This document shows, piece after piece, positions 177 to 62,004 of a DNA stretch of 64,000 bases. The stretch lies in NCBI GenBank assembly GCA_001791275.1, contig MGEH01000024.1, positions 11,097-75,096 of the forward strand, written 5' to 3'. The position numbers and the translations under genes were made by a program. This DNA is from Candidatus Uhrbacteria bacterium RIFCSPHIGHO2_12_FULL_60_25 (lineage in GTDB: Bacteria > Patescibacteriota > Patescibacteriia > 2-12-FULL-60-25). How positions within the stretch are numbered: position 1 is the first letter of the stretch; each line of letters begins with the position of its first letter. Under the pieces are notes generated by a model that did no database searches, was not told the DNA's origin, and worked only from the letters and a program-made list of their open reading frames with translations.

Positions 177-1346
177 TTACCATACAACGATAAATTTCAG
201 CACTGCGAAATACGTCTCCATCAACGGATTCGCGACCTTCCGCATGAACGGACTCTCCACGTCCTGATACGCGATTGCAGACACGAACCGTTTTAAGATC
301 TCGCGGTCCGAGCGTTTACGCAGGCTCCGCGTCTTGCGTCTCGTCGAGACAATGTAGCGCCACGTGGACGGCTTGAAGAACCAGGCCGTGGCGCGGCCCT
401 TCTCCTTGATCCAGCCGCCCTTGATCGCAAAGAGCCACGTGGCGATTTCAATCACGAACATCGCGGGCAACGTCAGAATGATTGTCCCGAGGCGATAATT
501 CATCAGAAAGACGGCCCAGCGGTTTCGCTCCATCCAGTACCACTTCTTCACCGAGCGTGAAAATTCGTAGCGGTGACGCAGGGTGCTCTTGGGCGCGAGC
601 AGGTTGTCGTGCCCCGCGATCATCATGCGCCAGCCCAGATCCAGGTCTTCGTGGTACGCGAAAAGCGTCTCGTCGAGCAGGCCGACCTCGCGGAGGACCG
701 AGTTGCGATAGAGGACGCCGGCACCGGACGCGTACGCGATCGGTTGGACGTCTCCCGGCGCTTCTGACACGGGTTGTTTGTACCCACGGCAGTAGCCGAA
801 CGCGGCGAAGTGGATGTCGTTCCCCGTGGAGTTGATCGTTGTCGGATCCTGCATGAGCACGAGGAGCGACTGGACAGAGCCCGCGTTCGGATGCGCTTCC
901 GCGACCGCGACCGCTTCGCGCAGCGACCCCTCTTCAAATGCCGCGTCGTGATTCAGAAGATAGCAGTAATCGGCCGTGGACGTCCGCATGACCAGATTGT
1001 TCCCTGCCGCGAAGCCCGTGTTCGACCCGGGTTCGTGCAACACGACCTTCGGCAGGTTTTCAGGAGGATTTGCGAGCACGGACTTCACGTAGTCCGCCGA
1101 CCCGTCGGACGACGCGTTGTCCACGATGTGGACCGTGAAGGCGTCGCGCGGGTAGTCCACGACGCACAACCCGCGCACGAGCTCTTCCAAATATGGCCGT
1201 GCGTTCCACGTGACCACGATGACGTCGACCACGGGAACCGGGAACCGGAAACCGGAAACCGGAAAATTGGAACAGGGTGGTGTTCCCCGTTCCCCGTTCC
1301 CGGTTCCCGGTTCCCGGTTCCCGGTTCCCTGTTCCCGGTCATTCAT
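177..1346 (-). CDS. Family 2 glycosyltransferase (GT-A fold) with hydrophobic C-terminal segments
   Basis: 389-aa ORF. VVDVIVVTWNARPYL...HIVDNASSDGS is a typical GT2 N-terminus. The first ~38 codons are encoded by the heptamer hairpin; an alternative GTG start lies at 1230-1232. Confidence 0.9.
   Translation of the reverse strand: MNDREQGTGNREPGTGNGERGTPPCSNFPVSGFRFPVPVVDVIVVTWNARPYLEELVRGLCVVDYPRDAFTVHIVDNASSDGSADYVKSVLANPPENLPKVVLHEPGSNTGFAAGNNLVMRTSTADYCYLLNHDAAFEEGSLREAVAVAEAHPNAGSVQSLLVLMQDPTTINSTGNDIHFAAFGYCRGYKQPVSEAPGDVQPIAYASGAGVLYRNSVLREVGLLDETLFAYHEDLDLGWRMMIAGHDNLLAPKSTLRHRYEFSRSVKKWYWMERNRWAVFLMNYRLGTIILTLPAMFVIEIATWLFAIKGGWIKEKGRATAWFFKPSTWRYIVSTRRKTRSLRKRSDREILKRFVSAIAYQDVESPFMRKVANPLMETYFAVLKFIVVW
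1233..1336. repeat. Inverted heptamer arrays (GGGAACC-type x6, spacer, GGTTCCC-type x8) forming a long hairpin
   Basis: Read directly. 1233-1274 = GGGAACC GGGAACC GGAAACC GGAAACC GGAAAAT TGGAACA. 1281-1336 = TGTTCCC CGTTCCC CGTTCCC GGTTCCC x4 TGTTCCC. Confidence 0.9.
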
Positions 1347-6602: not shown

Positions 6603-6663
6603 AATTTCTAATTTCTAATTTCTATAATAGAGTTTAGAAATTAGTCATTAGAAATTAGAAATT
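6603..6663. promoter_or_regulatory. AT-rich palindrome of heptamer arrays (TTTCTAA x3 / TTAGAAA x4) in a divergent promoter region
   Basis: 6605-6625 = TTTCTAA TTTCTAA TTTCTAT. 6634-6661 = TTAGAAA TTAGTCA TTAGAAA TTAGAAA. Lies between the divergent starts at 6599 (-) and 6717 (+). Confidence 0.5.
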
Positions 6664-6716: not shown

Positions 6717-8096
6717 ATGTATAAGACCGCGTTGAACCTGAAACGACTTCTCTTGATCGGCGGAGACGTACTCGCGTTGCAAGCGTCGCTCCTTGCGACC
6801 CTCTGGCTTCGGTACGGCAAATTCGAAACGCTCGTCTGGCAGCAGCACCGCGTTCCGTTCTTCTACGTCACGGGTCTCTGGGTCGTGGGACTGTTCGTGG
6901 CCGGACTCTATGACCTGTCGAAAGCTCGAAACGGCCTCGCGTTTTTCCGCCTGTTCCTCGAAGGCATGATCGTGAACCTGCTCGTGGCGTTCGCGTTCTT
7001 CTATCTCATCCCCGTGTTCGGCATCGAGCCGCGCACGAACCTGCTCCTCTACTTCGCCATCTCGCTCCTCTTCGTGTACGTGTGGCGCCTGCTCTATAAC
7101 CGGTACGTCTCCCGCGGACTCTTCCGGAACCGCCTGCTCTTCATCGGCTCGTCCGAAGACGCCCTCGTGATCTGTGAGATGCTGAAAAACCGGCCGCTCG
7201 GCTTCCAGGTGTGCGCCGTGATCCACACGACGCCGCGCGCGTCGTACGCCGCTGACGGGCTTCGGTGGGACGATCGTCTGTCCGCGCTTGAGGACATGCT
7301 TGCCAGGGAACGGATCAGTTCCATCGTCCTGGGTCACAGTCTGGAGGCGCTCCCGGAGCTCCGTGACGCCCTGTACCGGACGCTGTTCACGTCGACGGCG
7401 ATCATCGACCGCAAGGAACTCGAAGAGACGCTGACCGGCCGCGTGCCTGTGGCGAGCGTCACGAAGGCGTGGTTTTTGGAAAACCTCCGCGAGTCGGAAA
7501 AGACCTGGTACGAGGCCGTGAAGCGCGCAATCGACGTGCTGCTCGCCATCCCGTTCGGACTCGTGACGCTCGCGATCACGCCGCTCGTCGCGCTTGCCAT
7601 CAAACTTTCGTCGCGCGGACCCGTATTCTATTCCCAGGTTCGCGTTGGGAAGGGCGGACAGCTCATCCGGATCTGGAAATTCCGCACCATGCATGCGGAC
7701 GCGGAAAAGGACGGTCCGACGTTTACGGCGTCCGCAAAGACGGACGCGCGCCTGTTCTGGACCGGGCGGATCATGCGTCAGTTGCGAATCGACGAACTGC
7801 CACAGGTGTGGAACGTCTTGAAGGGCGACTTGTCGTTCATCGGGCCCCGTCCGGAGCGCCCGGAATTCGTGGGGTCGCTCGTGGAACGCATGCCGTACTA
7901 CGCGCTCCGTCATCTCACGCGACCCGGCTTGACCGGGTGGGCGCAGATCCAGTTATTGACTCCCACGACGAGCCTGGAGGACAACCTGAAGAAACTCCAG
8001 TACGACCTGTACTACATCAAGCACCGGTCGCTCATCCTCGACCTCGCGATCCTGCTCAAAACCATCGGGATTGTGCTTCGGAGGCAAGGGACGTAG
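6717..8096 (+). CDS. Polyprenyl-phosphate glycosyl-1-phosphate transferase (WbaP/EpsB-type bacterial sugar transferase), initiating enzyme
   Basis: 459 aa. N-terminal TM segments followed by KRAIDVLLAIP...SRGPVFYSQVRVGKGG...FRTM...DELPQVWNVLKGDLSFIGPRPERPEF. Confidence 0.93.
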   Translation: MYKTALNLKRLLLIGGDVLALQASLLATLWLRYGKFETLVWQQHRVPFFYVTGLWVVGLFVAGLYDLSKARNGLAFFRLFLEGMIVNLLVAFAFFYLIPVFGIEPRTNLLLYFAISLLFVYVWRLLYNRYVSRGLFRNRLLFIGSSEDALVICEMLKNRPLGFQVCAVIHTTPRASYAADGLRWDDRLSALEDMLARERISSIVLGHSLEALPELRDALYRTLFTSTAIIDRKELEETLTGRVPVASVTKAWFLENLRESEKTWYEAVKRAIDVLLAIPFGLVTLAITPLVALAIKLSSRGPVFYSQVRVGKGGQLIRIWKFRTMHADAEKDGPTFTASAKTDARLFWTGRIMRQLRIDELPQVWNVLKGDLSFIGPRPERPEFVGSLVERMPYYALRHLTRPGLTGWAQIQLLTPTTSLEDNLKKLQYDLYYIKHRSLILDLAILLKTIGIVLRRQGT

Positions 8097-9038: not shown

Positions 9039-9965
9039 TTAGAGCCTACTCGCGGGCGCCGGATCTGTCGAGGGAACGGGACGCGCGGTCACGATCATCA
9101 TGTCGCGCGGGTTGATGCGGACGGACAGGCGTTGCAGGAGCGGCCGTTCGGTGAGCCGTTTCAACCACTTCCATTCGAACCCGAGCCACCCCATGATGAA
9201 GTGGATCACGTAGGCGATCGTAAAATCCTTGCCGCGCCACTCGACGGAAACGAACTCAAACCCAGAGTCCGCCAGGCACGCCTTCATGCTCTGGAGCGAG
9301 AAGTAATGGATGTGCTGCGGAGGCGCCAAGAGCGTCCACCATCGGCCCGTGATGCGCGCGAACCAGGAGTCGCTCTGGGGCGTTGCAAACATGATGAGCC
9401 CGTCTGATGACATGATGCGTCGTATCACGCGGAAGAACTCGAACGGATCGCGCAGGTGCTCCACCACATCCCAAAGCGTGATCGCATCCACGCCCCGGAA
9501 CCGCTCGGCGTTCGCTTCGAGCGTCCCCTGCGCCACGTCCAACCCGCGCGCCCTCATGACCGTGGCCGCGTGCTCGGACAGTTCCACGCCGGACGCCTTC
9601 CAACCGCGTTCCTCTGTCATGCGCATGAAAAAACCCGTAGCCGCGCCCACATCGAGCAACCAACCCTTGGACGGTTTCCGCGCTTCGATGCGCTCGAGGA
9701 AATACGTGAAATCCGTTGCCACGCTCTGCTTGTCGCGATCGTAGTTCACGTACCCGTGCTTGGACGTATCGCCCTGGAAATACCCTTTGTCGTAGAACGC
9801 GATCAGCTCCGCCTCGGTCGGGATCGGGTGGATCCACAGGTGCTTGCACGTCCCGCACCGGTACAGCGACCAACGGTCTTTCGTGAACGCGAAACGGCCC
9901 GTGTGTCCGCTCTTCCCGGACGGACATGCGAGCTCGTTCGGACGCGATGCTACGGCTTCTTCCAT
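9039..9965 (-). CDS. Class I SAM-dependent methyltransferase with an N-terminal Cys-rich (zinc-ribbon-like) segment
   Basis: 308 aa. CPSGKSGH...YRCGTCKH followed by the LLDVGAATGFF SAM motif. Confidence 0.8.
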   Translation of the reverse strand: MEEAVASRPNELACPSGKSGHTGRFAFTKDRWSLYRCGTCKHLWIHPIPTEAELIAFYDKGYFQGDTSKHGYVNYDRDKQSVATDFTYFLERIEARKPSKGWLLDVGAATGFFMRMTEERGWKASGVELSEHAATVMRARGLDVAQGTLEANAERFRGVDAITLWDVVEHLRDPFEFFRVIRRIMSSDGLIMFATPQSDSWFARITGRWWTLLAPPQHIHYFSLQSMKACLADSGFEFVSVEWRGKDFTIAYVIHFIMGWLGFEWKWLKRLTERPLLQRLSVRINPRDMMIVTARPVPSTDPAPASRL

Positions 9966-11887
9966 ACGGAAACGTTATTGCCAACATGTTCTTCGACGTA
10001 CCCGGCCGGCAACTGCCAGAACGCACTCTGCGGATCCGGAATGATGACCCACGGACAGAACGCGCGGAAGGCGTACTTGTCCAACGTATGACGATTGATC
10101 GCCGCTTCGACGCGCTTCCAGTTCGCGTCGATCACGGCCTGACGGCACCCGATGAGTTCATTCGCCCGAGCCTGGTCGAACCCCATGCGTCGCAACACGT
10201 CCGCATAGAACGCATTGTGCGAATACTTGCTCCCTTCGGCGCACGGGATCGTTCGGTAGTGACCCGTGTAGAACCGGAAGAACCAGAGTTCGCCTGACGA
10301 CGTGACGCTGTATGCGCCCACCAGCGTCTCCAGATCGCGAATGACCTGCTCGCTTGAGTCGGGGTACGACAACGTGGGTTCAGCCGGATTCACGCGGCGT
10401 CCCGTATGGGCGGCGTAGAACGACGCGGATCCGGGATCGGCGCACATCATGTCTCCGGGCGGGACGTGAGACCTGATCCAGTCCACGACCGGGACGTTCA
10501 CCATGACCTCCGGGACCTTGGGAAAGTCCCGCAGGATGACGGGGATGCTTGCTCCGACCCCGATGGCTGCCATGGGCAGCGTGATGAGGATCGTGACGAC
10601 GGTCGTGTTCAGATGTGACGAGGTATGTCTCGACCGCCAGACCACGAGCCAGGCCGCCACGGCGAGCGCGAACCAGTGCGTCAGGTGGATCACGTACGAG
10701 TCGAACTTCCAGATATTCGATCGAAGCGGCTGCTGGAGCACGTAGACGAAGAACAACGTGGCGCCCGCGGCGACGACAAGCGGAAGTTGTTTGATGAGTG
10801 CATTTCCCAGTCCCCGTTTCCCAGTCCCCGTTTCCCAGTCCCCAGTCCCCAGACCCCAGACCGTGGCGAGCGAAAGCCATGCGAGCACGGCCACGGGCGC
10901 GATGAAGTGGTCGCTGTAGATATGGATGCCGGTGAACGGCGTGTTGAACCACAGGAAGAACAGGACGATCCATCCCCATGCCGCGAACGTGAGTCGATCG
11001 CGTGCGGCTGGCGACGCGGCGCGGCGCGCCAGTGCGAACAGGAACGCGATCCATGCGAGCATGGCAAGCACCGTGTTCGCGAAGAATGGCACGCGCGCGA
11101 ACACCATCCCGTTCCGCTCGTACATGCCCACGAGCCCTGCGCGCGCCGGATCGAGGAACCACTCTGCAAGCGGACCGGCGAGCGTCCACACGGTGATGAC
11201 GGAGAGCGCGACCAGGACCGGCAAGGTCCACGTGCGCAGCCGGACGAACCGCGCGGCCCAGATCGTGGCGAGCCAGAGTCCCGCGGGCATGAGGAACCAC
11301 GGGTAGAGGGTCGTGAGAAGGAGCGACGCGACGGACAGACCGATGGACCGGACGTATCGGTCTTTTTTCAGGGCTTCGTACGCCGGAAGGACGAGCGTAA
11401 GCCCGAGCATGCAAAACGGCAGGTACCACGAGTACATCCCGGGCCGGAGACTCAAGGGCAGGAGCGACAACCAGAGGCCCGCGATGACAGCGCGTGACGG
11501 CCAGCGCGCGATGCCTGACCACTGCTCCACGCACCAGGCGCCGATCCAGAGCGTGAGCGTGATCGCGATCCATCGGCTCACGATCCAGAGCTCCGGGACG
11601 CTCGCCCATGAGCCGACGAGCTTCCAGAGCGCCACGATGATAAGCGACCCGAACCATTTCAGGTGTCCGCCGTACGCGAGCCCGTTCGCCGCGGCGCCCA
11701 TCCAGTGCAGGTAGACGTACGTATCGAAGACCCCCGGAGTGACGGCGGGCACACGCCACCAACGTTCCACGTGCGCGGACACGTTCCAAATCCAATACGG
11801 CACCCAGGAGACAAGCCCTGTCAGGACCGGCACGCCGACCCACCATGCGCGCTCTCCATATCGCTTGAGGTCAAATGAGCGGGACAT
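9950..11887 (-). CDS. Large polytopic membrane protein, paralogue 1 of an unnamed family (GT-C-like candidate)
   Basis: 645 aa with many hydrophobic segments. Shares the VFDTYVYL loop motif, PFTGIHIYSDHF and four C-terminal Cys positions with the ORFs at 15274-17133 and 45625-47697. Confidence 0.85.
   Translation of the reverse strand: MSRSFDLKRYGERAWWVGVPVLTGLVSWVPYWIWNVSAHVERWWRVPAVTPGVFDTYVYLHWMGAAANGLAYGGHLKWFGSLIIVALWKLVGSWASVPELWIVSRWIAITLTLWIGAWCVEQWSGIARWPSRAVIAGLWLSLLPLSLRPGMYSWYLPFCMLGLTLVLPAYEALKKDRYVRSIGLSVASLLLTTLYPWFLMPAGLWLATIWAARFVRLRTWTLPVLVALSVITVWTLAGPLAEWFLDPARAGLVGMYERNGMVFARVPFFANTVLAMLAWIAFLFALARRAASPAARDRLTFAAWGWIVLFFLWFNTPFTGIHIYSDHFIAPVAVLAWLSLATVWGLGTGDWETGTGKRGLGNALIKQLPLVVAAGATLFFVYVLQQPLRSNIWKFDSYVIHLTHWFALAVAAWLVVWRSRHTSSHLNTTVVTILITLPMAAIGVGASIPVILRDFPKVPEVMVNVPVVDWIRSHVPPGDMMCADPGSASFYAAHTGRRVNPAEPTLSYPDSSEQVIRDLETLVGAYSVTSSGELWFFRFYTGHYRTIPCAEGSKYSHNAFYADVLRRMGFDQARANELIGCRQAVIDANWKRVEAAINRHTLDKYAFRAFCPWVIIPDPQSAFWQLPAGYVEEHVGNNVSVWKKP
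10803..10865. repeat. Nine tandem heptamers (TTTCCCA GTCCCCG ... GACCCCA) in-frame within the membrane-protein gene
   Basis: Read directly. The coding strand is TGGGGTC TGGGGAC TGGGGAC TGGGAAA CGGGGAC TGGGAAA CGGGGAC TGGGAAA, encoding GLGTGDWETGTGKRGLGN. Confidence 0.85.
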
Positions 11888-12560
11888 GGCGGAGAATGTC
11901 TTCAGGTTTCATGACGATCCAGCACCCGAGGCCGAGCGCGGGCCAGTCCGACCGGAAGCGGAATGGAAGACCGGGATACTTCTCCCGCGTATGTCGCGCG
12001 GAGAACAGTTCTTCATCCGCCCACACGCCCGTCCTGCCGAAGAAGCAGCTGTTCACCCAGAGGATCAAACGCATGTGCGGGGTGTCGGGCGGGAGTTCGA
12101 GGACCACCGCGTTCCGCGCGCATCGCGCGTGCTCACGCAGGATGCGCGCCTGTTCGTCCGGTTCAAAGTGTTCAAGGAGACCAAGAGAGTAGACCACGTC
12201 GAACGACGCGTCCGGGAACGGCATGGCCATGGCGTCGCCAAGGACGATCTCACACGCCGTGGCGTGCGCTTTGCCCAGCTCATAGGCACGCGGCGTCTTT
12301 TCGATCCCCGTGCATTTCGCGCCCGTCATCTGTTGCAGTCGGACGATCGTTTGCGCGGACCCCACGCCGACTTCCAGGTAGGACGTTGCCGGGCCCCCGA
12401 GCTCGGCGATGCGCTTTGCGAACAATTTCGAGAAATAGACCTCCCGGCCCCAGTGGATCATGCGGTCAAACCACCCCTTCTGGCCCTCTTCGGCCGCGTA
12501 GTAGCTGTCCCACATCTCGGGACTATTATTGTGTCGTTTCGTCTGTGGTCGGTCGTTCAT
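11871..12560 (-). CDS. Class I SAM-dependent methyltransferase
   Basis: Start taken at MNDRPQ (12560). YLEVGVGSAQT SAM motif and FDVVYSLGLLEHF. Confidence 0.8.
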   Translation of the reverse strand: MNDRPQTKRHNNSPEMWDSYYAAEEGQKGWFDRMIHWGREVYFSKLFAKRIAELGGPATSYLEVGVGSAQTIVRLQQMTGAKCTGIEKTPRAYELGKAHATACEIVLGDAMAMPFPDASFDVVYSLGLLEHFEPDEQARILREHARCARNAVVLELPPDTPHMRLILWVNSCFFGRTGVWADEELFSARHTREKYPGLPFRFRSDWPALGLGCWIVMKPEDILRHVPLI

Positions 12561-13353
12561 ACGCAGTGAGAGGTTTTCGGAATTTCCAGCCCAGGCGCCA
12601 CGGCATGCCAACGGCTTCAAGGATGATTCGCTTGTTCAGCTTGGACGCGCCGAGCGTACGGTCGCGGAACACGATCGGGACTTCGATGGCCGGGAAGCCC
12701 AGCCGGAACGCCACGAATTTCAGCGCCGTGAGGAACGAGTACCCATCACCCATGACGGGCTGTTTCAGGACGGAGCGGAGCACGTCCGCACGCCATACGA
12801 TGAACCCCGCCGTATTATCGCGCACCGGGTAGGATGGGTAAAACAGGCGGAGCACGGTGCGCGCGTACAGGTTCCCGCCGCGGGACAGGAGGACGCGCCG
12901 GTGGTCCCAGTCCGGCGTTGACCCGCCCTGCACATACCGCGAGCCGACCGCGACACCATACGTGCGCGCGCGTTCGATCAAGAGCGGCAGCATCTCGGGG
13001 TCATGCGAGAAGTCCGCATCCGTCTGGATCACGATCCCATACCCGGGGGCGTGCTCTTGCACCCAAGCGAACGCATCGAGGTAGCAGCGCCCCAATCCGT
13101 ACTTCCCCGTGCGCCGCATGAGGATGATGCGTCGCGGCAGCGACGGCGCGAGCCGCTCCACCGCGTCCGCCGTTCCGTCCGGGCTGCCGTCGTCTGCCAC
13201 GAGGACGTCCGCCGGGATCTCGAGGCCCGTGAGGGCCGTGAGCAACCGCTCGATGTTCCCCCGTTCGTTATACGTGGGAACGATCACGACCGCCCGACCT
13301 TGCGGCAGGCGGTCGTTCCACGTGGTGACCGAAGCGACACGGACGTCCGTCAT
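12526..13353 (-). CDS. Polyprenol-monophosphomannose synthase-like GT2 (Ppm1/DPM1 type), copy 1
   Basis: Real start is MTDVRV at 13353, in an ATGA overlap with the gmd stop. VVIVPTYNERGNIERLL...DDGSPDGT...TDADFSHDP. Confidence 0.88.
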   Translation of the reverse strand: MTDVRVASVTTWNDRLPQGRAVVIVPTYNERGNIERLLTALTGLEIPADVLVADDGSPDGTADAVERLAPSLPRRIILMRRTGKYGLGRCYLDAFAWVQEHAPGYGIVIQTDADFSHDPEMLPLLIERARTYGVAVGSRYVQGGSTPDWDHRRVLLSRGGNLYARTVLRLFYPSYPVRDNTAGFIVWRADVLRSVLKQPVMGDGYSFLTALKFVAFRLGFPAIEVPIVFRDRTLGASKLNKRIILEAVGMPWRLGWKFRKPLTAYERPTTDETTQ

Positions 13354-15273: not shown

Positions 15274-17133
15274 CTACTTTGCGCCGTATACGACGGCGGT
15301 CGCGTCTTCGTAGAGCTTGACGTAGGACAATGGGATTCGCCAGTCGTCCGAGAATCGTTCGTGAATTACGATCCGTTGGCAAAAATCGGAATCATTCGCG
15401 GTCTGTTGTGCCCATTGCAACTTCATTCGAGCGATCACTGCTGCACGAATCGCATTGGCCCGATCCTCGTCGCACCCGCTCAAAAATATACGCTGCGTCG
15501 CAGTAAATGGAATGAGGTTCAGGATCTGACGAGCGGTCGTTGACAAACAAGCGGCATCATGTGCAATGAGGATCATGTCGTCCATATACGAACGCTCAAT
15601 ACCTGCGTCTGGGTTCAAATACTTTGAGAACTCGACGAGGCGATCCTGAAGAACGCTCGTTGGAACGTGGTCGAACATCATCACCATCGCCGGACTGAAC
15701 GAAGCCCCGGTCGTTGAAGAGAGGTCGTCACCTGTTAGATAATCTGCACACCAACGACGCAAATGTACCTTCGTATCTTGGAGCATCCAGCTCCTTACAC
15801 CTATCAACTCAGAAGATAGCTGCGTTCGCTCCATTGCATACGCACCAACTGAAATAATACCTATCAGTGCATACACGAACGCTATGAAACACCAGATCAA
15901 ATTCAAACGAAGACGTGTGATTCCAGATAGGAGTCCGAGTGCAAGAAACGTCCAGCTTCCGATATGGATCAGGAGCGAGGAAAAATCCATGAATCGATAC
16001 ACGCCAATTGCATATTTAGAGAGGATATACATTGTAAAAGCGTATGCGACCATAGCGAGCACAAAAAGAATCGATCGCCAGCGGTTGAAAATTGACTCAC
16101 GTGCATATATTGGCCACGCCACAACTGAGAAAATAGAAAGGTGCCACACGGGGTAAATAAAATGATCGGATAATATCGAGATACCGGTCAGGAGCGATTG
16201 ATTCCAAAGAATTGCGACCGCTACCCACGCTGCGAGCATGACCTCTGTAGAAATACACCTCTGTGGAGATATGCGCCTCTGAAAAGATTGTGACCTTCGA
16301 AGTATCGTCCAAGCGATAATCCACAATATAATGATGAGTATGCTATTACTGAGGACAGGTAGGTGAGAAAATCCAAGTGCACCACGTTCCATAAGCTCAT
16401 AAGTCGAAGAACGTAAAAAAGTTTCCCACCAATCATGACGCATCAAGATAAGTCCTTCAGCAATTACGAAACCGACCGCGAGGATGATGATCGCCGACAA
16501 CGGCTCAAGAAATCGTTTCAAGAACAGCAGGACGCACGTAACAAGGATGACTGAAACATACCAGGGATAAACCGCCGAAATGAATAGTGCCACACCCCAT
16601 AACGCCGTGCCGCGTATTCTCTTTCCTATGGCAAGATCATATTCTCCGAGAACTACGAGGAGAAATCCGAGATAAAAAAATGGCACATACCACGAGGAAC
16701 CGCCTGGCCGAAGAATAAGAATTGATTGAACGGAAAGAAATGCGAGGAGACTATAAAATCTTGTTCCAACAATTGAGAGATCGGTCAATTTTTGTAACAA
16801 AATTGCAAGAAACCAAACGCTCAGGATTGCGGAGACGATAATACCAAGCACATAAAGTTCCGATAGTGATACATACGGCCAGATCAAACGTGCGACATAT
16901 TCCATCGGACGAAAATGAATTGGAAGAATGGTGGAACCATTAAATAGATCCTTTGACAAAATTTGCAAATAAAATGTCTGGTCAAAAAAAACTTTTGGTA
17001 AGGCCGAAATTCTTAGCCCCTTCGGTACTGAAAGGGCACCGAGCCCGAACCAATAGCTAGCACCGATCGCTACAGGCAGTACCCCATACCATACCCATGG
17101 CATCGAAAGCCACTTTTTCAATGTGAGTTTCAT
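15274..17133 (-). CDS. Large polytopic membrane protein, paralogue 2 of the unnamed family (lower-GC copy)
   Basis: 619 aa. FFDQTFYL loop motif, LLTGISILSDHF, and C-terminal Cys positions conserved with the 9950 and 45625 proteins. ATGA overlap with the upstream GT2. Confidence 0.85.
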   Translation of the reverse strand: MKLTLKKWLSMPWVWYGVLPVAIGASYWFGLGALSVPKGLRISALPKVFFDQTFYLQILSKDLFNGSTILPIHFRPMEYVARLIWPYVSLSELYVLGIIVSAILSVWFLAILLQKLTDLSIVGTRFYSLLAFLSVQSILILRPGGSSWYVPFFYLGFLLVVLGEYDLAIGKRIRGTALWGVALFISAVYPWYVSVILVTCVLLFLKRFLEPLSAIIILAVGFVIAEGLILMRHDWWETFLRSSTYELMERGALGFSHLPVLSNSILIIILWIIAWTILRRSQSFQRRISPQRCISTEVMLAAWVAVAILWNQSLLTGISILSDHFIYPVWHLSIFSVVAWPIYARESIFNRWRSILFVLAMVAYAFTMYILSKYAIGVYRFMDFSSLLIHIGSWTFLALGLLSGITRLRLNLIWCFIAFVYALIGIISVGAYAMERTQLSSELIGVRSWMLQDTKVHLRRWCADYLTGDDLSSTTGASFSPAMVMMFDHVPTSVLQDRLVEFSKYLNPDAGIERSYMDDMILIAHDAACLSTTARQILNLIPFTATQRIFLSGCDEDRANAIRAAVIARMKLQWAQQTANDSDFCQRIVIHERFSDDWRIPLSYVKLYEDATAVVYGAK

Positions 17134-17849
17134 TGATGCTTAGAAAATTTCTTATGGAACTGAAGCATCGCGCGACTCACACTCACCAAATTTTCCCAAC
17201 GCAATGCGGTGGACCGTCCTTGTCGTGGAAGGATACGCATAGGGACTTCTACAAACGATGCGCCTTCTCGAAGGAGCGTGAGTAGTATCTCTGCGGCATA
17301 TGCGAAACTTGGAGTTTCTGGCAATGCGCGACGAAGTTGATCGATCCGATATACATTAATCCCATTGAAGTAGCGGACACGACGATGGTACATGACATTT
17401 AATATTATCGTGAATACTCTCGAGATGAGACGTCGAAGCAACGACCGTACTTCAGGATTTTCCGTATACGTAACGACCATGTCGGCGGAACCAATCGCAC
17501 AAATGACGCGCGCGACAGATATACTGTCAATTTCATTATCTCCGGGAACCATGACCACATGATTCTTGGTCGCCGCCAAAACGGCGTTTCGATATTTTTC
17601 TCCGAGAAGCTGGTATGTAGGACTGTGAAGTACTCGAATGCGTGCGTCTGATGCCGCAAGCTCCTGTGCGATGAGCCGAGTTCGATCTTCACGCCCATCA
17701 CGATCCACGCACGTCACAATGATCATTTCATAATCCTGAATCTCCGCTTTCGTAAGAGCGCTGCGTACTCCCTGTATCGTCGCTTCAATATTACGCTCCT
17801 CATTCAATGCAGGGATGATGATACTCAAGGATATGTTCATGGCCTGCAA
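17130..17849 (-). CDS. GT2 glycosyltransferase, DPM1/GtrB-like
   Basis: 239 aa. LSIIIPALNEERNIE...VPGDNEID. Confidence 0.85.
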   Translation of the reverse strand: MQAMNISLSIIIPALNEERNIEATIQGVRSALTKAEIQDYEMIIVTCVDRDGREDRTRLIAQELAASDARIRVLHSPTYQLLGEKYRNAVLAATKNHVVMVPGDNEIDSISVARVICAIGSADMVVTYTENPEVRSLLRRLISRVFTIILNVMYHRRVRYFNGINVYRIDQLRRALPETPSFAYAAEILLTLLREGASFVEVPMRILPRQGRSTALRWENLVSVSRAMLQFHKKFSKHQ

Positions 17850-17892
17850 AGACTACAGAAGTGAGTCGCGATTGACAAGCAATATCGATCAC

Positions 17893-18396
17893 CTATCGAT
17901 CACGCTCAAGCCCAAGTGATCGAAAAAGATCTGAAGAATGGATGAGGAGCGACGGAGTGAAGATGACACGACCACCAATTGATTCCATCACTCGGATATC
18001 CTCATGAATTCCATGAGACGGATCCGCGAGCATCGGCAGATGGTCTTCCCCTTTCGTATAGAGATTCGGTCGAATGGTCCGCATGAGCGACCAGGGACCT
18101 TCTTCCTCATTTAACACTACGTAGTCAACGCTCTCGAGCGCCGCGACCCACGTGAGTCGTTGAATCTCTGAAAACCATGGCCGTCCAGGACCCTTCCTCA
18201 CATAGGCATCCGCGATCACGCCAACGTATACGAAGTCACCACGTTTTTTTGCTTCCTCGAAATAGTTCACGTGTCCCAGGTGGACCAAATCAAAAACTCC
18301 ATGGCAGTGGACGATGGTCAGGCCTTCTGCTTGAAGTGCTCGCACGATCCGTGCGAGCTCATCGGGTGTTTTAATTTTCTCAGTCGTGAAACGCAT
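17893..18396 (-). CDS. Cytidylyltransferase-fold nucleotidyltransferase (heptose-1-phosphate adenylyltransferase, HldC/RfaE domain II-like)
   Basis: 167 aa. HCHGVFDLVHLGHVNYFEEAKK (GxFDxxHxGH motif). Confidence 0.8.
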   Translation of the reverse strand: MRFTTEKIKTPDELARIVRALQAEGLTIVHCHGVFDLVHLGHVNYFEEAKKRGDFVYVGVIADAYVRKGPGRPWFSEIQRLTWVAALESVDYVVLNEEEGPWSLMRTIRPNLYTKGEDHLPMLADPSHGIHEDIRVMESIGGRVIFTPSLLIHSSDLFRSLGLERDR

Positions 18397-39260: not shown

Positions 39261-40264
39261 GCGACTTCCACGAACCGACCGTCTTCTTTGAGCGAACGCA
39301 TCGCGGTTTCGAGGATACGGATCACACGAAGTCCTGAATGCCCATCGGTCTCCGGTGCGCGTCCTTCCTTGATCGCATTGAAAAACTCGCGGATCTGGAG
39401 TTTCAGCGGTTCTTCCTGACGGATGTTCGGGATGAATGTATGACCGGTCCGCAGCGACGGGTAGGCCGGCGTGTCCTGTTCCGGATCATACGTTCCGCGA
39501 TCGTACACTTTGATCGGTTCTGCCGTGTTGATGTCATCGTACACCGCCATCTTTTTATCACCCGCCACGACCATGAGACGCTGCTTGAGCGGTGAATACC
39601 AGTTCACGTGCACGTGACCCATGAGTCCGTCGCCGTAATCGAGTGAGAGGTGGACCATGGTCTCTTGCGGAGACGTTGGATGCGGCACATGCGATGCGCC
39701 GACGGCCGCCACGCGTTTCGGCATGCGGCCGCCCAGCACCGCTTCGAAGATCGTCAGATCATGCGGCGCAAGATCCCACATCACATTCACATCCGGACGG
39801 AACAGGCCCAGATTCACGCGGACCGAGTCCATGTACCGGATCTTTCCGAGTTCGCCGGACTTCGCGAGCTCTGCCAGTGCGCGAACTTCAGGCTTGTAAT
39901 GGAACACGTGTCCCACCATGAGTCGCCGGTCTGCCTGTTCTGCGCGTGCGATCAGATCTTTCGCTTCATCAGACGTTCGTGTGAGGGGTTTTTCCACCAT
40001 CACATGGAGCCCGGCGTCGAGCGCGGCGCGTGCTAAGTCTGCGTGCGTGTGAACAGGCGTTACGATGAACGCGACGTCGTACCGGTCACTGAATACAGCG
40101 GGGGCGGACTCTGCGACGTGAGTGCGCGGATAACGCTGAACAAGTTTCTGCGCCTTCGACGCATCCAGATCGGAAATGCCGATCGACTCAACTTCCGGGA
40201 ACTCCAATAGATTCCGAACGATGTTCGGTCCCCAATACCCTGCTCCGACAACGAGGACGCGCAT
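39257..40264 (-). CDS. Gfo/Idh/MocA-family NAD(P) oxidoreductase (WbpB-like nucleotide-sugar 3-oxidase candidate)
   Basis: 335 aa. MRVLVVGAGYWGPNIVRNL and EKPL motif. Confidence 0.88.
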   Translation of the reverse strand: MRVLVVGAGYWGPNIVRNLLEFPEVESIGISDLDASKAQKLVQRYPRTHVAESAPAVFSDRYDVAFIVTPVHTHADLARAALDAGLHVMVEKPLTRTSDEAKDLIARAEQADRRLMVGHVFHYKPEVRALAELAKSGELGKIRYMDSVRVNLGLFRPDVNVMWDLAPHDLTIFEAVLGGRMPKRVAAVGASHVPHPTSPQETMVHLSLDYGDGLMGHVHVNWYSPLKQRLMVVAGDKKMAVYDDINTAEPIKVYDRGTYDPEQDTPAYPSLRTGHTFIPNIRQEEPLKLQIREFFNAIKEGRAPETDGHSGLRVIRILETAMRSLKEDGRFVEVA

Positions 40265-40386
40265 ATGATGGGTATTCCTTACATGGAAAAAACGAATACA
40301 TCAAGAGAGAACCAAAAAGGAAGACATCTTAATATTTCAAACAAGCCTGAAAAAACCGCTATAACGTTTGTAAGAAAAGCACAACA

Positions 40387-41634
40387 TCATCGATCCGGCT
40401 TGTACAGCGTAAAAAAAATATTAAACGCCTCTGCAACGTACTGAATATCAGCTTCAGTCATCCCTTGATGAGAGCCTATATAAAACCCATTTCGCTGAAT
40501 CCAATCAGCAACTGGGTAGGACGAACTAAGATCGCCAAAGCGATCACGATAAAAAGGTTGTGAAATAAGTGGAAGCATGTCACGTGTTTCAATACCTCTT
40601 GCCTCTAGATGGTTAACCAAATCAACTTTCAAATATTGATCATGAAGAATGACGATCGGAAACATCATAAAAGCATGATCAGTATCAGTTGGATGGTATG
40701 GTAATTGGAGTTCTGTTGCGTACTTACGCAGTACTTCAAGTAGTCGCAAAGCTGTTCGTTTGTGACCATCAATAATTTCAGCCTTTCTGTCCAGCTGCGC
40801 GACACCAAGCGCTCCCTCTAGCTCCGTTAGGCGATAGCTGTAACCGAGTCGTACAAAATTAAATCTCCGTTGAACGACTTCTGCCAAATGATCAGTATCT
40901 ACGGCACTTTGTCGATCATCCATGCTGAAATAAATTGAGTCCCGACCATGATTCGCGAGACTACGTAGAATGATGGCGAGATTCTTATCTTTCGTTAGGA
41001 CGATACCACCTACACCAGTTACTAGCAGATGACACATATACGTCGAGAAGCAGGCAATGTCGCCGAAGGACCCTACTGACCGACCACGATAACGTGTGAA
41101 CATCGTTTCGCATGAATCCTCGACGATACGTAATTTGTGTTTCTTTGCAATCGCTTCGATCGGCTCCATATTACATGGTTGTCCAAAAAGGTGAACGGGT
41201 ACGATTGCGCGCGTTCGATCCGTAATGTGTGCTTCTATTTTACTTGGATCGATGTTGTATGTTCGGCGGTCGACATCAACGAAAACTGGGGTAAGACCAA
41301 GCTCAATCAGCATGTTCGATGTTGCCACGAAAGTCACGGCCGGAACGATGACTTCATCACCCATTTTCCATCCATCCAATTCTTTTAATGCAGCAAACGC
41401 TATATGGAGTGCACTAGTCCCGCTGTTCACAGCTACCCCAAAAGAAACATCATGATCTCGTGCAAAACGATGTTCAAATTCTTGCAGGAAAGGACCATAG
41501 GATAAACGGCCACTGTCAAGAACCCGTAGTATATTTCTACGCTCGCGTTCACCGATGTCCAAGCAGCCAAGGCCGATTCGTATTTGTTTAATGTCGGGTG
41601 CCATACCAATAGTTCTTTGGAATACTGCATTCAA
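40387..41634 (-). CDS. DegT-family PLP/PMP enzyme with His in place of the Schiff-base Lys (ColD/E1-type 3-dehydratase-like)
   Basis: 415-aa ORF (alternative start MAPDIK). FGDIACFSTYMCHLLVTGVGG aligns to FGDMGCFSFYPTKNLGALGEGG of the 35336 gene, with K replaced by H. Visibly AT-rich. Confidence 0.8.
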   Translation of the reverse strand: MNAVFQRTIGMAPDIKQIRIGLGCLDIGERERRNILRVLDSGRLSYGPFLQEFEHRFARDHDVSFGVAVNSGTSALHIAFAALKELDGWKMGDEVIVPAVTFVATSNMLIELGLTPVFVDVDRRTYNIDPSKIEAHITDRTRAIVPVHLFGQPCNMEPIEAIAKKHKLRIVEDSCETMFTRYRGRSVGSFGDIACFSTYMCHLLVTGVGGIVLTKDKNLAIILRSLANHGRDSIYFSMDDRQSAVDTDHLAEVVQRRFNFVRLGYSYRLTELEGALGVAQLDRKAEIIDGHKRTALRLLEVLRKYATELQLPYHPTDTDHAFMMFPIVILHDQYLKVDLVNHLEARGIETRDMLPLISQPFYRDRFGDLSSSYPVADWIQRNGFYIGSHQGMTEADIQYVAEAFNIFFTLYKPDR

Positions 41635-41758
41635 ACAGATCGACGATTAGGATAGTGTACTGTCAATCGTCATTTTTTTGCAAGGAATCAAGTTTCAAGA
41701 CAAATAACCCTTGCTATTGCAGTCGTTTCCCGATACAATTCACTCAATATTAATCGAT

Positions 41759-41968
41759 ATGGCATCACGTCGTAAGAGGGTGTTGGTCGTTGGAGCCAAT
41801 GGATTCATCGGTCGAGCACTCACATCACGACTCGTCTCCCTCGGTTATCATGTTGTGGCTGCGTCTCATTCACAATGTCATGGAATCTCTGCTTCGCAAA
41901 TACGAACTGGCGACCTACGCGACGCACGCTACTGTCGGCGTATTACGAGGGATGTTGACATTATTTAA
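41759..41968 (+). pseudogene. Truncated remnant of an NAD-dependent epimerase/dehydratase (Rossmann N-terminus only)
   Basis: MASRRKRVLVVGANGFIGRALTSRLVSLGYHVV... stops after 69 codons and abuts the 3' end of the convergent AT-rich membrane gene. Confidence 0.55.
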
Positions 41969-41977
41969 ATAACAGAC

Positions 41978-43672
41978 TCAATACTTTGCATATCGTAAGA
42001 AATATGGGTAGCCCAAATTTTTTGACTTCACCGTTCCATAAAGAGTGGTCACATTCTGCGGTGACCCATTTCGAACATCACATGAAGATGCATTAATGCT
42101 GATGCAAGAGTCTACATCTTCATTTTCAGTACACGATCTGGAACAATCCGATGTTACACGCCAGATGTGTTCGATGTGCGTTTGAGGTATAGGGAGCACA
42201 TCAAAAGATGAATTTTGATAATATACGATCGGACGGAAATCTATGAAGCGATCAATCATATCCGGATGATCAATTAAAAACTGATTTCGCCGTAACGCTT
42301 TCGTATTGACATCAAGAAATTGAAAAGAGGACCTGTTCAGAGGCAGTTCGAGGTGCTTAGCGTCTATCACGATCAATTGATCAGGGGTATTGTATTTCTC
42401 GTAAAAAAACTGGTAGACCTGCATTTCTGATGATGGTGACCAAAATAACAACATGACTTTTAGTAAAATGTATATTGCAAAAATAGCAAATGGTGGAATG
42501 AACAGGGTGAGAATACTGTTGGATAAAGTTGTAAAAAGAAATAAAAAACTCATCGTGATTGCAAGACTAAAAATAATGGCATATCTCGGATATCCAATAA
42601 GTCCCGCAATTACAACATCAGTCGTGAATACAGCTACTGGATAGAGTAGACATATCAAGAGGACGATCAGCTTCCTTCGTCTTGAACCTAGTTGATGAGA
42701 GTATGGTAGTTGGACAAGATAAAATGCGAAAATAAAGAGGAAAGAAACGACAAGTACTGGGTTGCTCTCCCATAAGGTCTGGAACAGCCATACAAATCTT
42801 TTCAGCCAGTCAATTGAACCATCCGGAAACAAGTAGTCCGTCCCATTCAGACTCGTACTGGTTGCAACAGACGACGTTAAATTAAGAATTCGTTGATAGA
42901 AACTTAATTGAGTAAGTATTATCAACAAAAAAATCCCGATGTGGCATTTTAGGGCTTGTACAGTTTCAGATATTGAAATATGACCAAGCAACATTGCGAA
43001 TACCACCCAGAGAACCACATGGATCATCATTGGTACTTGTAGTATTGCAAGGAATGCCAGCCATAACAGTAATGAAATATATACTCGCTTCTCAATAAGG
43101 AGATTTTTTGTTCGCGTAATGAAGTATTCCTGAAAAAGCACAAGCCCTCCAGCGGTGAGCATGAATAATGAACCAAGAAGCCAGACTTTGCCGGTATGTA
43201 TAAGCAATACGAATAACGGATTACTGAAAAGAACAGAAAGAAATAGTGCAGCAAGTAACCCAAGTTGTTTCAATCGATTACGCGTGTATAAAAATCTAAA
43301 AAAAAGGAACAGCAACAGTAGGACACTGAGACCATTAACAACTCGTACCGTATGTAGAAGATCACCATAGTGAACTGCAAAATATCCCATTAAGATTATA
43401 GGTGGATAAAAAAAGGTTAAGTCATATACAAATCTCGTGAGGACAGCAACCGTCACGAGGTATGTTTGCACTCCACCGTAATATGCTCCGCCCACCGTAA
43501 AATCCCATCCGGGGAGCGTATGATTACTCAATGCTGATAATGCACTGCTCAAAAAATACGATTCATCAGAAATTACGGCTGTATTATCCCCAAAGGGATT
43601 CGGATTAAGAAATAATGGTGATATAAGCAACGTTACTAGGATTGGAAGTGCAGATCGAAATTTCAAAAGCAT
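41978..43672 (-). CDS. Polytopic membrane protein, GT-C-like candidate (very AT-rich)
   Basis: 564 aa with many hydrophobic segments. Early loop motif ISDESYFLSSA (DExY-like). Cys-rich C-terminal soluble region. Confidence 0.8.
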   Translation of the reverse strand: MLLKFRSALPILVTLLISPLFLNPNPFGDNTAVISDESYFLSSALSALSNHTLPGWDFTVGGAYYGGVQTYLVTVAVLTRFVYDLTFFYPPIILMGYFAVHYGDLLHTVRVVNGLSVLLLLFLFFRFLYTRNRLKQLGLLAALFLSVLFSNPLFVLLIHTGKVWLLGSLFMLTAGGLVLFQEYFITRTKNLLIEKRVYISLLLWLAFLAILQVPMMIHVVLWVVFAMLLGHISISETVQALKCHIGIFLLIILTQLSFYQRILNLTSSVATSTSLNGTDYLFPDGSIDWLKRFVWLFQTLWESNPVLVVSFLFIFAFYLVQLPYSHQLGSRRRKLIVLLICLLYPVAVFTTDVVIAGLIGYPRYAIIFSLAITMSFLFLFTTLSNSILTLFIPPFAIFAIYILLKVMLLFWSPSSEMQVYQFFYEKYNTPDQLIVIDAKHLELPLNRSSFQFLDVNTKALRRNQFLIDHPDMIDRFIDFRPIVYYQNSSFDVLPIPQTHIEHIWRVTSDCSRSCTENEDVDSCISINASSCDVRNGSPQNVTTLYGTVKSKNLGYPYFLRYAKY

Positions 43673-43699
43673 AAGTGAATGAAAGATAACAATTTCCTA

Positions 43700-44407
43700 T
43701 CACGTTTTCCAATAGAGATCTTTAAGCAAGACAAAAATAAACTTTATTCCCATTATGGTCTTTAATTTTGATTTTCCCCACGCTCTCGCCTTTTCCCGAC
43801 TCGGAATTTCTACCAATCGACACTGCTTCTTTAAACATTTCACAACCATTTCCTGTTCAATGCAAAAATCATTCGACTTCAATCCTAAACTATGGAATGT
43901 CGATTTTTTTACGGCTCTAAAACTATACAGAATATCACTCAATTGAATTTTGAAACGTTGATTTACCAAAACAGTTAAGAAATCAGATCCGGCTGAACGG
44001 ATAATCCCTGTTAGACTCATATCTAGATCGTGACTTCCGCCAAGTCGCCTTGAAGTAATCACCATGTCCGCGGTCTCATCGATCAGCGGCTTGATGAGCT
44101 GTGGGATATCGCTGGCTTCATGCGATCCATCGGCATCAAAAAATACAATGATATTACCTGAGGCCGCTTCAACACCCATACGGACTGCATCCCCTCTGCC
44201 GAGACCATGATCGAGTAAGTATTTCGCTCCCTGCTCCAAGGTAATGTATCGGGTGTTGTCTTTCGAGTGGCCATCAACAACGATGACTTCGTCTGCATAA
44301 GGTTTAACCGATTCAATTATTTTTTTTATTCCTGCTCCTTCGTCTTTTGTTGGAATGACGATTGATATCCCGATATGATCGCTCATATTGCCGATGCTTC
44401 TAGTCAC
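43700..44407 (-). CDS. GT2 glycosyltransferase, DPM1/GtrB-like
   Basis: 235 aa. ISIVIPTKDEGAGIKKII...VVDGHSKDNT...FDADGSH. Confidence 0.85.
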   Translation of the reverse strand: MTRSIGNMSDHIGISIVIPTKDEGAGIKKIIESVKPYADEVIVVDGHSKDNTRYITLEQGAKYLLDHGLGRGDAVRMGVEAASGNIIVFFDADGSHEASDIPQLIKPLIDETADMVITSRRLGGSHDLDMSLTGIIRSAGSDFLTVLVNQRFKIQLSDILYSFRAVKKSTFHSLGLKSNDFCIEQEMVVKCLKKQCRLVEIPSREKARAWGKSKLKTIMGIKFIFVLLKDLYWKT

Positions 44408-61935: not shown

Positions 61936-61943
61936 ATAGATAA

Positions 61944-62004
61944 GTGCTTGGGTGCTTGAGTGCGAGAGACCCTCGTGCACTCAAGCACTCAAGCACTCAA
62001 GCAC
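61944..62004. promoter_or_regulatory. Palindrome of octamer arrays (TTGAGTGC-type x2.5 / GCACTCAA x3.5) in a divergent promoter region
   Basis: 61944-61963 = GTGC TTGGGTGC TTGAGTGC. 61977-62004 = GCACTCAA GCACTCAA GCACTCAA GCAC. Lies between the divergent starts at 61935 (-) and 62055 (+). Confidence 0.5.

Follow-up and report, generated by a model that had tools for sequence, protein, structure and literature searches.

How can a tandem repeat whose unit is not divisible by three reside in the middle of a gene for a large membrane enzyme, and does it do anything there? The question is raised by a G-rich heptamer/14-mer tract at positions 10803-10865 of a 64-kb stretch of DNA (the window; 64,000 nucleotides (nt), considered at its full length) from Candidatus Uhrbacteria bacterium RIFCSPHIGHO2_12_FULL_60_25, a member of the Candidate Phyla Radiation (CPR). 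The tract lies within gene B, which encodes a polytopic membrane protein and probable glycosyltransferase. It belongs to the already described G-rich heptamer simple sequence repeats (SSRs), and it is notable for its in-frame place in a membrane-enzyme gene of a CPR bacterium. Based on the evidence collected here, the tract is probably a slippage-born passenger that is tolerated by the host gene and carries latent potential for frameshifting and for G-quadruplex (G4) formation.

Architecture of the repeat tract

The 63-nt tract combines the 14-mer TTTCCCAGTCCCCG, repeated 2.9 times without mismatch, with degenerate heptamers into which the array decays. By direct reading, the plus strand of 10803-10865 is TTTCCCAGTCCCCG TTTCCCAGTCCCCG TTTCCCAGTCCCC-A GTCCCCA GACCCCA GACCGTG. 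A preliminary description of the window, made by eye, had reported this 14-mer with its decay into heptamers, and a run of three to four G every 7 nt on the coding strand; the sequence is as described, with the copy number set at 2.9 by Tandem Repeats Finder (TRF) and with eight G3-4 runs at 7-nt spacing on the coding (minus) strand. That strand reads GGTCTGG GGTCTGG GGACTGG GGACTGG GAAACGG GGACTGG GAAACGG GGACTGG GAAATGC, its heptamer units being GGGGTCT, GGGGACT and GGGAAAC. The parts of the tract are as follows.

10803-10816 and 10817-10830, plus-strand reading: copies 1 and 2 of the 14-mer, unit TTTCCCAGTCCCCG
10831-10843(/44), plus-strand reading: copy 3 of the 14-mer, last base altered
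10803-10843, minus strand: perfect array of 2.9 copies of the 14-mer, coding strand CGGGGACTGGGAAA, composed of the heptamers GGGGACT and GGGAAAC
10844-10865, minus strand: degenerate heptamers GGTCTGG GGTCTGG GGACTGG on the coding-5' side of the array
G-rich unit of the tract, written as an oligonucleotide: (GGGGACTGGGAAAC)2-3

For the 14-nt unit, TRF gives a period of 14 with 2.9 copies, 100% matches and a score of 82; at period 7 it gives 7.7 copies with 72% matches over 10803-10862, and 95% matches over 10834-10862. Perfect 14-nt periodicity spans 41 nt of the tract, yet this amounts to only 2.9 copies. A period scan of the window returned seven tracts of period 7, four of period 14 and one of period 8, and no tracts of periods 4-6 or 9-13. 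Shuffled sequence gives only 0.00-0.03 tracts per period; the repeat is therefore genuine and well outside what chance would produce, with an excess particular to period 7.

The tract codes in frame for the Gly/Thr-rich peptide GLGTGDWETGTGKRGLGN, amino acids (aa) 345-362 (G345-LGTGDWETGTGKRGLG-N362) of the 645-aa open reading frame (ORF) 9950-11887 on the minus strand, and protein homology runs on at both sides of it. No inverted-repeat partner was found for 10803-10865, in contrast to the arrays at 1232-1339, 6603-6663 and 61943-62004, and an Rfam search of the whole window retrieved no family up to the gathering score, hence no known RNA element.

Host protein and place of the tract in the fold

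The host gene is the following.

9950-11887, minus strand: gene B, 645-aa polytopic membrane protein, probable GT-C-fold glycosyltransferase

Protein B is identical to OGL73296.1/OGL78752.1 from Ca. Uhrbacteria RIFCSPHIGHO2_12_FULL_60_25 and a sibling metagenome-assembled genome (MAG). It has no match in Pfam at E<=0.01 and none in NCBIfam, and it is not a member of the curated GT-C sequence families (PMT_2, STT3, ArnT and similar). The AlphaFold2 (AF2) model built from 25 homologues (mean predicted local distance difference test score (pLDDT) 88.8, predicted template modelling score 0.88) has 13 long helices followed by a C-terminal domain of ~180 residues. When the model was compared with the PDB by Foldseek, the 13 best matches were all GT-C enzymes (STT3/OST, ArnT, DPY19, EmbA/EmbC, PglB), with probabilities of 0.96-1.00 but E-values of 2e-3 to 3e-2 and TM-scores of 0.3-0.45. 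Protein B is thus a probable GT-C-fold enzyme that would stand outside any curated family. As in the GT-C enzymes PglB/STT3, ArnT, EmbC and DPY19, 13 transmembrane (TM) helices are predicted together with an extracytoplasmic C-terminal domain, a long first external loop that holds a nearly invariant Asp, D55, as candidate for a catalytic role, and conserved motifs on the external loops flanking TM10; B differs from these enzymes in lacking sequence-family membership and in the weak Foldseek E-values and TM-scores. Across the 25 homologues, F54-D55, which contains the Asp of the first external loop, reaches a conservation of at least 90%, and the C-terminal domain has three invariant Cys and one nearly invariant Cys.

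Helices were assigned by DSSP on the AF2 model and complemented by counts of Lys and Arg (K/R), simple Kyte-Doolittle calling of TM segments being too coarse. The tract then falls on the junction of two helices.

10844-10915, minus strand: codons of TM10, aa 325-348, DSSP helix, starting at the invariant D326-H327 of the SDHF motif
10811-10843, minus strand: codons of the TM10-TM11 coil, aa 349-359, GDWETGTGKRG, wholly within the repeat, predicted cytoplasmic
10721-10810, minus strand: codons of TM11, aa 360-389, DSSP helix, the first residues L-G-N still repeat-encoded

The degenerate heptamers (10844-10865) overlap the codons of T342-V343-W344 at the end of TM10. The preliminary description had put the tract straight after the SDHF...LAWLSLATVW segment, which MAFFT alignment confirms, and had considered a position inside a TM helix implausible; in the AF2 model, residues 349-359 form a low-confidence coil between two long helices (pLDDT ~52, <50 at 356-358). 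We infer that the tract encodes the last turn of TM10, a cytoplasmic turn and the first turn of TM11. The assignment of the membrane side presumes an N-terminus inside and alternating helices: on this basis, 'in' loops hold 16 K/R in 78 aa (20%) and short 'out' loops 10 in 145 aa (7%), and the C-terminal domain comes to lie outside under the N-in/13-helix topology, as in GT-C enzymes. Because of the 13 helices, the Cys-bearing C-terminal domain and the K/R bias (positive-inside rule), the TM10-TM11 loop is most likely cytoplasmic, so it would not be a surface-exposed variable loop.

Variability of the loop in orthologues and paralogues

The alignment comprised 23 orthologues of 32-64% identity, which cover 93-100% of B, and the two paralogues of the window. 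The three membrane proteins had been taken for paralogues from inspection of their translations, and the relationship is evident from significant identity to B in both cases.

15274-17133, minus strand: paralogue C, 22.5% identity to B, E 3e-17
45625-47697, plus strand: paralogue I, 29.5% identity to B, E 3e-93
46828-46850, plus strand: heptamer ACGACGC x3.3, unrelated to that of B, in the homologous TM10-TM11 loop of paralogue I, TRF 100% matches

Across the 25 homologues, the loop between TM10 and TM11 varies in length between about 5 and 26 residues and none of its columns is conserved, in line with the earlier expectation that the segment is not conserved among orthologues. It is bounded by a conserved upstream flank, FTGIxxYSDHFIxPxxxLAWxSLAxVW, and a conserved downstream flank, GATLFxxYILQQPxR..KFDSY. 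In the orthologues, unrelated sequences occupy the loop, most of them rich in Arg/Lys and the shortest being ~5 residues long. The loop of B (~18 residues) is equalled or exceeded by those of several orthologues and is long only when set against paralogue C, the second of the three, whose short ARESIFN loop is reproduced by the alignment. The different heptamer tract noted earlier in the third paralogue is the ACGACGC array of paralogue I. Because an unrelated heptamer occupies the same loop there, the loop reads as a place in the fold where such repeats can survive.

At the DNA level, no 7-nt periodicity was found in the loops of the orthologues P0003, P0004, P0007 and P0020, nor in that of paralogue C. 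The nearest orthologue, P0002 (64% identity), has in the same loop the heptamers GGGGGAC CGGGGAC TCGCACG CGGGAAC CGGGGTC, and 24/31 bases are identical between its loop DNA and the tract when aligned by MAFFT. Since P0002 carries degenerate heptamers at the same position, a G-rich heptamer tract at this loop would either predate the lineage or have arisen twice at the same site. The perfect 14-mers represent a recent re-expansion in this lineage, as 41 nt of perfect 14-nt periodicity must be recent. The preliminary description had proposed a lineage-specific expansion of non-ancestral sequence, and this idea survives in part: the variability of the loop, the apparent recency of the perfect 14-mers and the lack of periodicity in P0003, P0004, P0007 and P0020 support it, whereas the loop is not longer than those of orthologues, related heptamers are present in P0002, and the loop is probably cytoplasmic.

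Slippage as the probable origin of the tract

The account that we consider probable runs as follows. A G-rich heptamer/14-mer SSR would have arisen, and recently re-expanded, through replication slippage (slipped-strand mispairing), and it would have been tolerated in the short cytoplasmic turn TM10-TM11 as the most permissive place available, with selection demanding only that the tract length stay in frame. The tract would belong to a class of heptamer repeats that characterizes this genome and some of its relatives and is generated by slippage with a 7-nt bias, and it would be a presumably neutral passenger, not a conserved functional element. It would survive in the gene because the turn is permissive and the present length keeps the reading frame; the latent truncation and G-quadruplex properties follow from the anatomy of the tract. 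The excess of periods 7 and 14, the variability of the loop, the low-confidence coil and the gain or loss of the repeat among relatives count for this account, as does a stable consensus allele that occurs without slippage variants.

Three observations weigh on the other side, to different degrees. The related degenerate heptamers kept by P0002 at the same loop, at 64% protein identity, imply a persistence longer than expected of a neutral repeat, unless slippage renews the tract or it had a double origin. The G-rich strand is the coding strand in three of the four G-rich tracts of the window, an orientation reported to be under-represented in Xanthomonas and Nostoc (PMC4692102). Lastly, all tracts of the window are in envelope-glycan genes; the observation is weightless, as the window consists almost entirely of such genes.

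Phase variation as an unlikely alternative

Among the alternatives, the one that fares best understands the tract as a contingency locus, in which slippage by 7 or 14 nt reversibly switches the GT-C enzyme while sister tracts in genes of the glycosyltransferase families GT2 and GT4 vary the surface glycan combinatorially. We regard it as unlikely. The anatomy is suitable in principle: the unit length is not divisible by three, and each change by ±7, ±14 or ±28 nt truncates the protein after TM10, with in silico products of 389-511 aa that have lost the C-terminal domain as well as TM11-13. For the tract to be in frame after heptamer growth, it would, moreover, have had to grow in three-unit steps or to pass through frameshifted intermediates. 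Coding-region heptanucleotide switches are known, the repeat of neuO driving phase variation (PMC13001214). Haemophilus lic/lgt genes, Campylobacter capsular polysaccharide/lipooligosaccharide (CPS/LOS) genes and Escherichia coli K1 neuO likewise have a repeat of non-multiple-of-three unit in the ORF of a surface-glycan enzyme, several repeat-bearing genes per cluster and a product truncated by unit change, and the way in which related tracts recur in several glycosyltransferase genes within a single cluster recalls the Haemophilus and Campylobacter LOS genes. The present tract differs from these systems in being short, partly degenerate and placed mid-gene (aa 345-362 of 645, far from the 5' end), and in showing no consensus-level length polymorphism.

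Only 2.9 copies of the array are perfect, the sister tracts are interrupted (86-94% matches by TRF), and none of the five intragenic tracts breaks the reading frame in the assembly. The wild-type protein was found exactly on 21 contigs from independent assemblies and in two MAGs, all at consensus level; a strain variant (P0024) that has its three substitutions outside the tract keeps it unchanged, and for each sister tract, 10-11 contigs carry one identical sequence. Among MAGs, contigs and strain variant, no tract-length polymorphism was detected at the consensus level. Nine slippage alleles were constructed for the tract (-28, -14, -7 in two versions with the same product, +7 in two, +14, +28, and the in-frame -21 and +42) and ten further ones for the GT4 and GT2 tracts. 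Exact look-up in a collection of ~15 billion proteins, which represent consensus alleles, returned 0/19 for the three tracts, the eight predicted alleles of the GT4 tract at 56786-56857 included. Neither the flank-gap pattern GTTGTTTGATGAGTGCA-N{49,79}-GCGAGCGAAAGCCATGCGAGC nor a 27-nt piece of the array had a match among JGI metagenome contigs; because even the original allele was unmatched by the pattern, that collection appears to be without this population. The location in glycan genes is uninformative, and enrichment of the tracts in such genes was rejected as an argument for phase variation, since by Pfam essentially the whole window is glycan-related. There is, in sum, no positive evidence for on/off switching, and a minority of switched cells would escape tests made on consensus sequences.

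If the contingency reading were true, low-frequency slippage would generate glycan-variant subpopulations serving, for example, phage escape or altered host attachment, slippage would become more frequent through the G4-forming coding strand, and consensus assemblies would hide the minority alleles. The broader proposition that Uhrbacteria, and perhaps other regulator-poor CPR episymbionts, use heptamers in GT-C/GT2/GT4 genes as contingency loci appears quite unlikely. Were reads to show heterogeneity in unit count, however, it would be the first hint of repeat-driven phase variation of a surface glycan in the Candidate Phyla Radiation, with bearing on the dealings of episymbionts with their hosts and phages.

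G-quadruplex, peptide selection and artefact as further unlikely alternatives

A functional G-quadruplex is a second, very unlikely alternative to the tolerated passenger. A G4 in the coding strand or mRNA would pause transcription or translation after TM10, or would modulate replication or recombination, and the tract would be kept for that purpose. That the coding strand of the tract can form a G-quadruplex is predicted: it contains two canonical G3+N1-7 motifs as well as eight G-runs; of the seven canonical G4 motifs in the window, six belong to three G-rich heptamer tracts and are all coding-strand motifs; and ViennaRNA with G4s allowed returns a G4 in the predicted structure and a minimum free energy of -50.7 as compared to -39.9 kcal/mol. 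Oligonucleotides of the GGGGACT type fold into G4s in vitro (PMC4692102), and the G-runs are kept in the loop of P0002. They are absent, however, from this place in the four other orthologues whose DNA was compared and in paralogues C and I; the G-rich unit has the opposite orientation in the gene at 53513-56059; and Rehm et al. were unable to assign such repeats a regulatory role (PMC4692102).

Selection at the protein level we hold to be most improbable. On this view, the Gly/Thr-rich peptide would serve as a flexible hinge that joins TM10 to TM11 on the cytoplasmic side, and the DNA repeat would be no more than the route by which the hinge was built. The loop is a coil in the AF2 model, and heptamers of this type give, by direct reading, the same hydrophilic stop-free repeat of 7 aa or 14 aa in all three frames. 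Yet the loops of orthologues are unrelated, mostly Arg/Lys-rich and of many lengths, and the DNA copies are perfect even at synonymous positions, which argues for recent duplication and not for selection on the peptide. Finally, although short-read MAGs can mis-assemble repeats, the reading of the tract as an assembly or sequencing artefact of a short-read metagenome is effectively refuted, because the gene DNA is identical in the independent Logan assemblies of SRR2090157 and SRR2090153 and the protein in two NCBI MAGs, the 63-nt tract is shorter than one read, and reading frame and homology are unbroken across it.

Relation to known heptanucleotide repeats

The class to which the tract belongs was described by Rehm et al. 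(2015) as dispersed, in vitro G4-forming repeats of GGGAATC in Xanthomonas and GGGGA(C/T)T in Nostoc; these are mostly intergenic, under-represented on the coding strand of ORFs and without assigned function, their copy number varies between relatives, and they are sometimes arranged as inverted pairs (PMC4692102). Common to both are head-to-tail 7-nt units made up of a G3-4 run and three to four other bases (GGGGACT is the Nostoc unit), at least four consecutive G-tracts, from which an intramolecular G4 is predicted to be possible, an arrangement of some arrays in inverted pairs, a copy number differing between relatives, and the lack of a demonstrated function. Dispersal over the genome is probably shared as well, the 64-kb window holding four G-rich tracts. 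The differences concern location and host. Whereas the repeats of Rehm et al. are mainly intergenic and rare on the coding strand, those of the window are all intragenic and in frame, three of four having the G-strand as coding strand; the hosts are large-genome proteobacteria and cyanobacteria there and a CPR bacterium of the ~1-Mb class here; and a 14-nt higher-order unit is present here. The STRR repeats of Calothrix and Nostoc (Mazel et al. 1990, cited in PMC4692102) are likewise dispersed tandem heptanucleotides, but they are cyanobacterial and mostly intergenic. The STRR1 unit is CCCCAGT, which corresponds to the plus-strand sequence of the GTCCCCA units at 10838-10851.

According to Mrazek et al. 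(2007), as summarized elsewhere, heptanucleotides outnumber all other long SSRs in many prokaryotes, for which polymerase slippage with a preference for 7 nt has been proposed as the cause, as the polymerase may hold a stretch of ~7 nt (via PMC4692102, PMC4679880); long-unit SSRs are associated with large high-GC genomes of non-pathogens, and repeat units in coding regions tend to be divisible by three (via PMC4679880). The window shows the same spectrum as that summary conveys, with its seven period-7 tracts and none of periods 4-6 or 9-13; its units are not divisible by three, yet they are inside ORFs. The heptamer bias of large high-GC genomes and of cyanobacteria thus extends to a CPR genome, with most tracts intragenic. 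Our literature search found no paper linking Uhrbacteria to tandem repeats. The importance of the tract is in providing a well-documented case of a frame-breaking microsatellite living inside an essential-looking membrane enzyme, and such residence needs a permissive cytoplasmic turn together with a length that happens to be in frame.

Other arrays in the window and in relatives

The four G-rich heptamer tracts of the window (1282-1339, 10803-10865, 54924-54954 and 56786-56857) are all within ORFs whose homology continues on both sides, and a preference for non-coding DNA is not seen. Besides gene B, the class is found in three further genes at permissive sites, namely an N-terminal extension, a domain linker and a loop of a GT4 N-domain.

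1282-1339, minus strand: (CGGGAAC) x8.3 on the coding strand (TRF), 5' end of the GT2 gene 177-1346 (minus strand), canonical G4 motifs
1232-1265, minus strand: inverted partner (GTTTCCG) x4.9 (TRF), forming a hairpin with the 1282-1339 array, 34-nt arms, 85% complementary
56786-56857, minus strand: (GGGAACC/GGGAACG) x10.3 on the coding strand, within the GT4 gene 56056-57219 (minus strand), encoding QGTGNGEREAGNRERGTGNGEPGTG, G4 motifs
54924-54954, plus strand: CCGGGAA x4.4, G-rich strand antisense to the gene, in the GT4/PMT_2 linker of 53513-56059 (minus strand), encoding GSPFPVPGRRV

The gene at 53513-56059 (minus strand) encodes an 848-aa GT4-PMT_2 fusion with Pfam domain limits of 195-350 and 443-601. 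The 56786-56857 tract has a 14-nt higher-order unit, is in the N-terminal domain of the GT4 enzyme and is unchanged in the sibling MAG. At 1232-1339, (CGGGAAC) x8 is followed, after an 8-nt gap, by (GTTyCCG) x6, and the annotated ORF translates here as MNDREQGTGNREPGTGNGERGTPPCSNFPVSGFRFPVPV; in a GT2 relative of 90% identity (P0027, L125), the N-terminus is unrelated and repeat-free. Translation could in fact start at a GTG immediately preceding the GT2 domain, and the hairpin 1232-1339 would then be an element of the 5' untranslated region (UTR).

Arrays paired with an inverse array occur in intergenic DNA as well. At 6603-6663, between the divergent genes for an S8 peptidase (start 6599, minus strand) and a Bac_transf protein (start 6717, plus strand), AT-rich (AATTTCT) x3 of period 7 is followed by the inverse (AGAAATT) x4 with 91% complementarity, and the pair may act as an operator or form a structure in a 5' UTR. 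At 61943-62004, upstream of an asparagine-synthase-like gene, the octamer (AGTGCTTG) x2.6 precedes its inverse (GCACTCAA) x3.5; the GTG listed at 61980 is probably not the true start, and with the conserved N-terminal MCGIAG beginning at ATG 61935, the hairpin would lie in the 5' leader. An inverted repeat at 2413-2503 (32-nt arms, 84% complementary, 27 nt apart) has no tandem units.

Relatives differ in their content of such arrays. The contigs of the orthologues P0002 and P0003 hold no arrays at the scan threshold and that of P0007 holds one, while in 22.5 kb of the P0020 locus (L127; 40% identity, 1-Mb CPR genome) there are seven arrays of period 7 and three of period 8. The L127 arrays at 2318-2662, 6863-6947, 9926-9990 and 17695-17766 include several in ORFs and several inverted pairs. 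A methyltransferase ORF of this locus has (GGGGAGT) x5 upstream of the S-adenosylmethionine-binding motif and an in-frame (GAGTCGT)n...(ACGACTC)n hairpin inside the domain, and array-hairpins are present also at gene 3' ends and in intergenic spacers. The combination of an array with its inverse looks like a recurrent architecture in this clade, which might have originated by template switching, one arm being copied onto the other.

Beyond the clade, (GGGAACC)3 or longer occurs at >119 loci of GTDB genomes (L004-L122), with up to 13 perfect copies and several genomes having 3-4 loci each, the hosts belonging to many high-GC phyla and comprising Gemmatimonadota, Acidobacteriota, Planctomycetota, Actinomycetota, Proteobacteria and others. 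This distribution across phyla rules out a lineage-specific mobile element as the carrier of the unit. The (GGGAACC)3 tracts are mildly depleted from coding sequence, 86/125 (~69%) lying in open frames of at least 300 codons as compared to 83% of random positions at the same loci.

Host family and gene neighbourhood

Apart from the repeat, the host family represents a gain for annotation: with three paralogues in one cluster, no Pfam or NCBIfam model and a confident GT-C-like structure model, the three 13-TM paralogues are, by structure prediction, an unannotated glycosyltransferase family of CPR bacteria. Their conserved external motifs are F54-D55, E257-R258, TG..DHF and QQP.R..KFDSY, and the C-terminal domain is Cys-rich. 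Gene B has GT2 enzymes, methyltransferases, epimerases and a Bac_transf priming transferase for neighbours, and Pfam places nearly every gene of the 64-kb window in glycan metabolism, consistent with an envelope-glycan cluster. Within the cluster, low-GC islands at 16001-18000 (46%) and 40001-44000 (38-46%), set against ~60%, hold paralogue C and a large polytopic family-less protein (41978-43672); their composition suggests horizontally acquired cassettes.

The methyltransferase gene upstream of B (11871-12620) is separate, its end overlapping the start of B by 17 nt. The membrane protein of the orthologue P0002 (L001 10001-12568) carries a methyltransferase fused to its N-terminus, and that of P0020 (L127 10001-12571) is fused to a GT2 domain. 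Fusions of this Rosetta-stone type suggest that the membrane enzyme works together with a methyltransferase or a GT2 enzyme.

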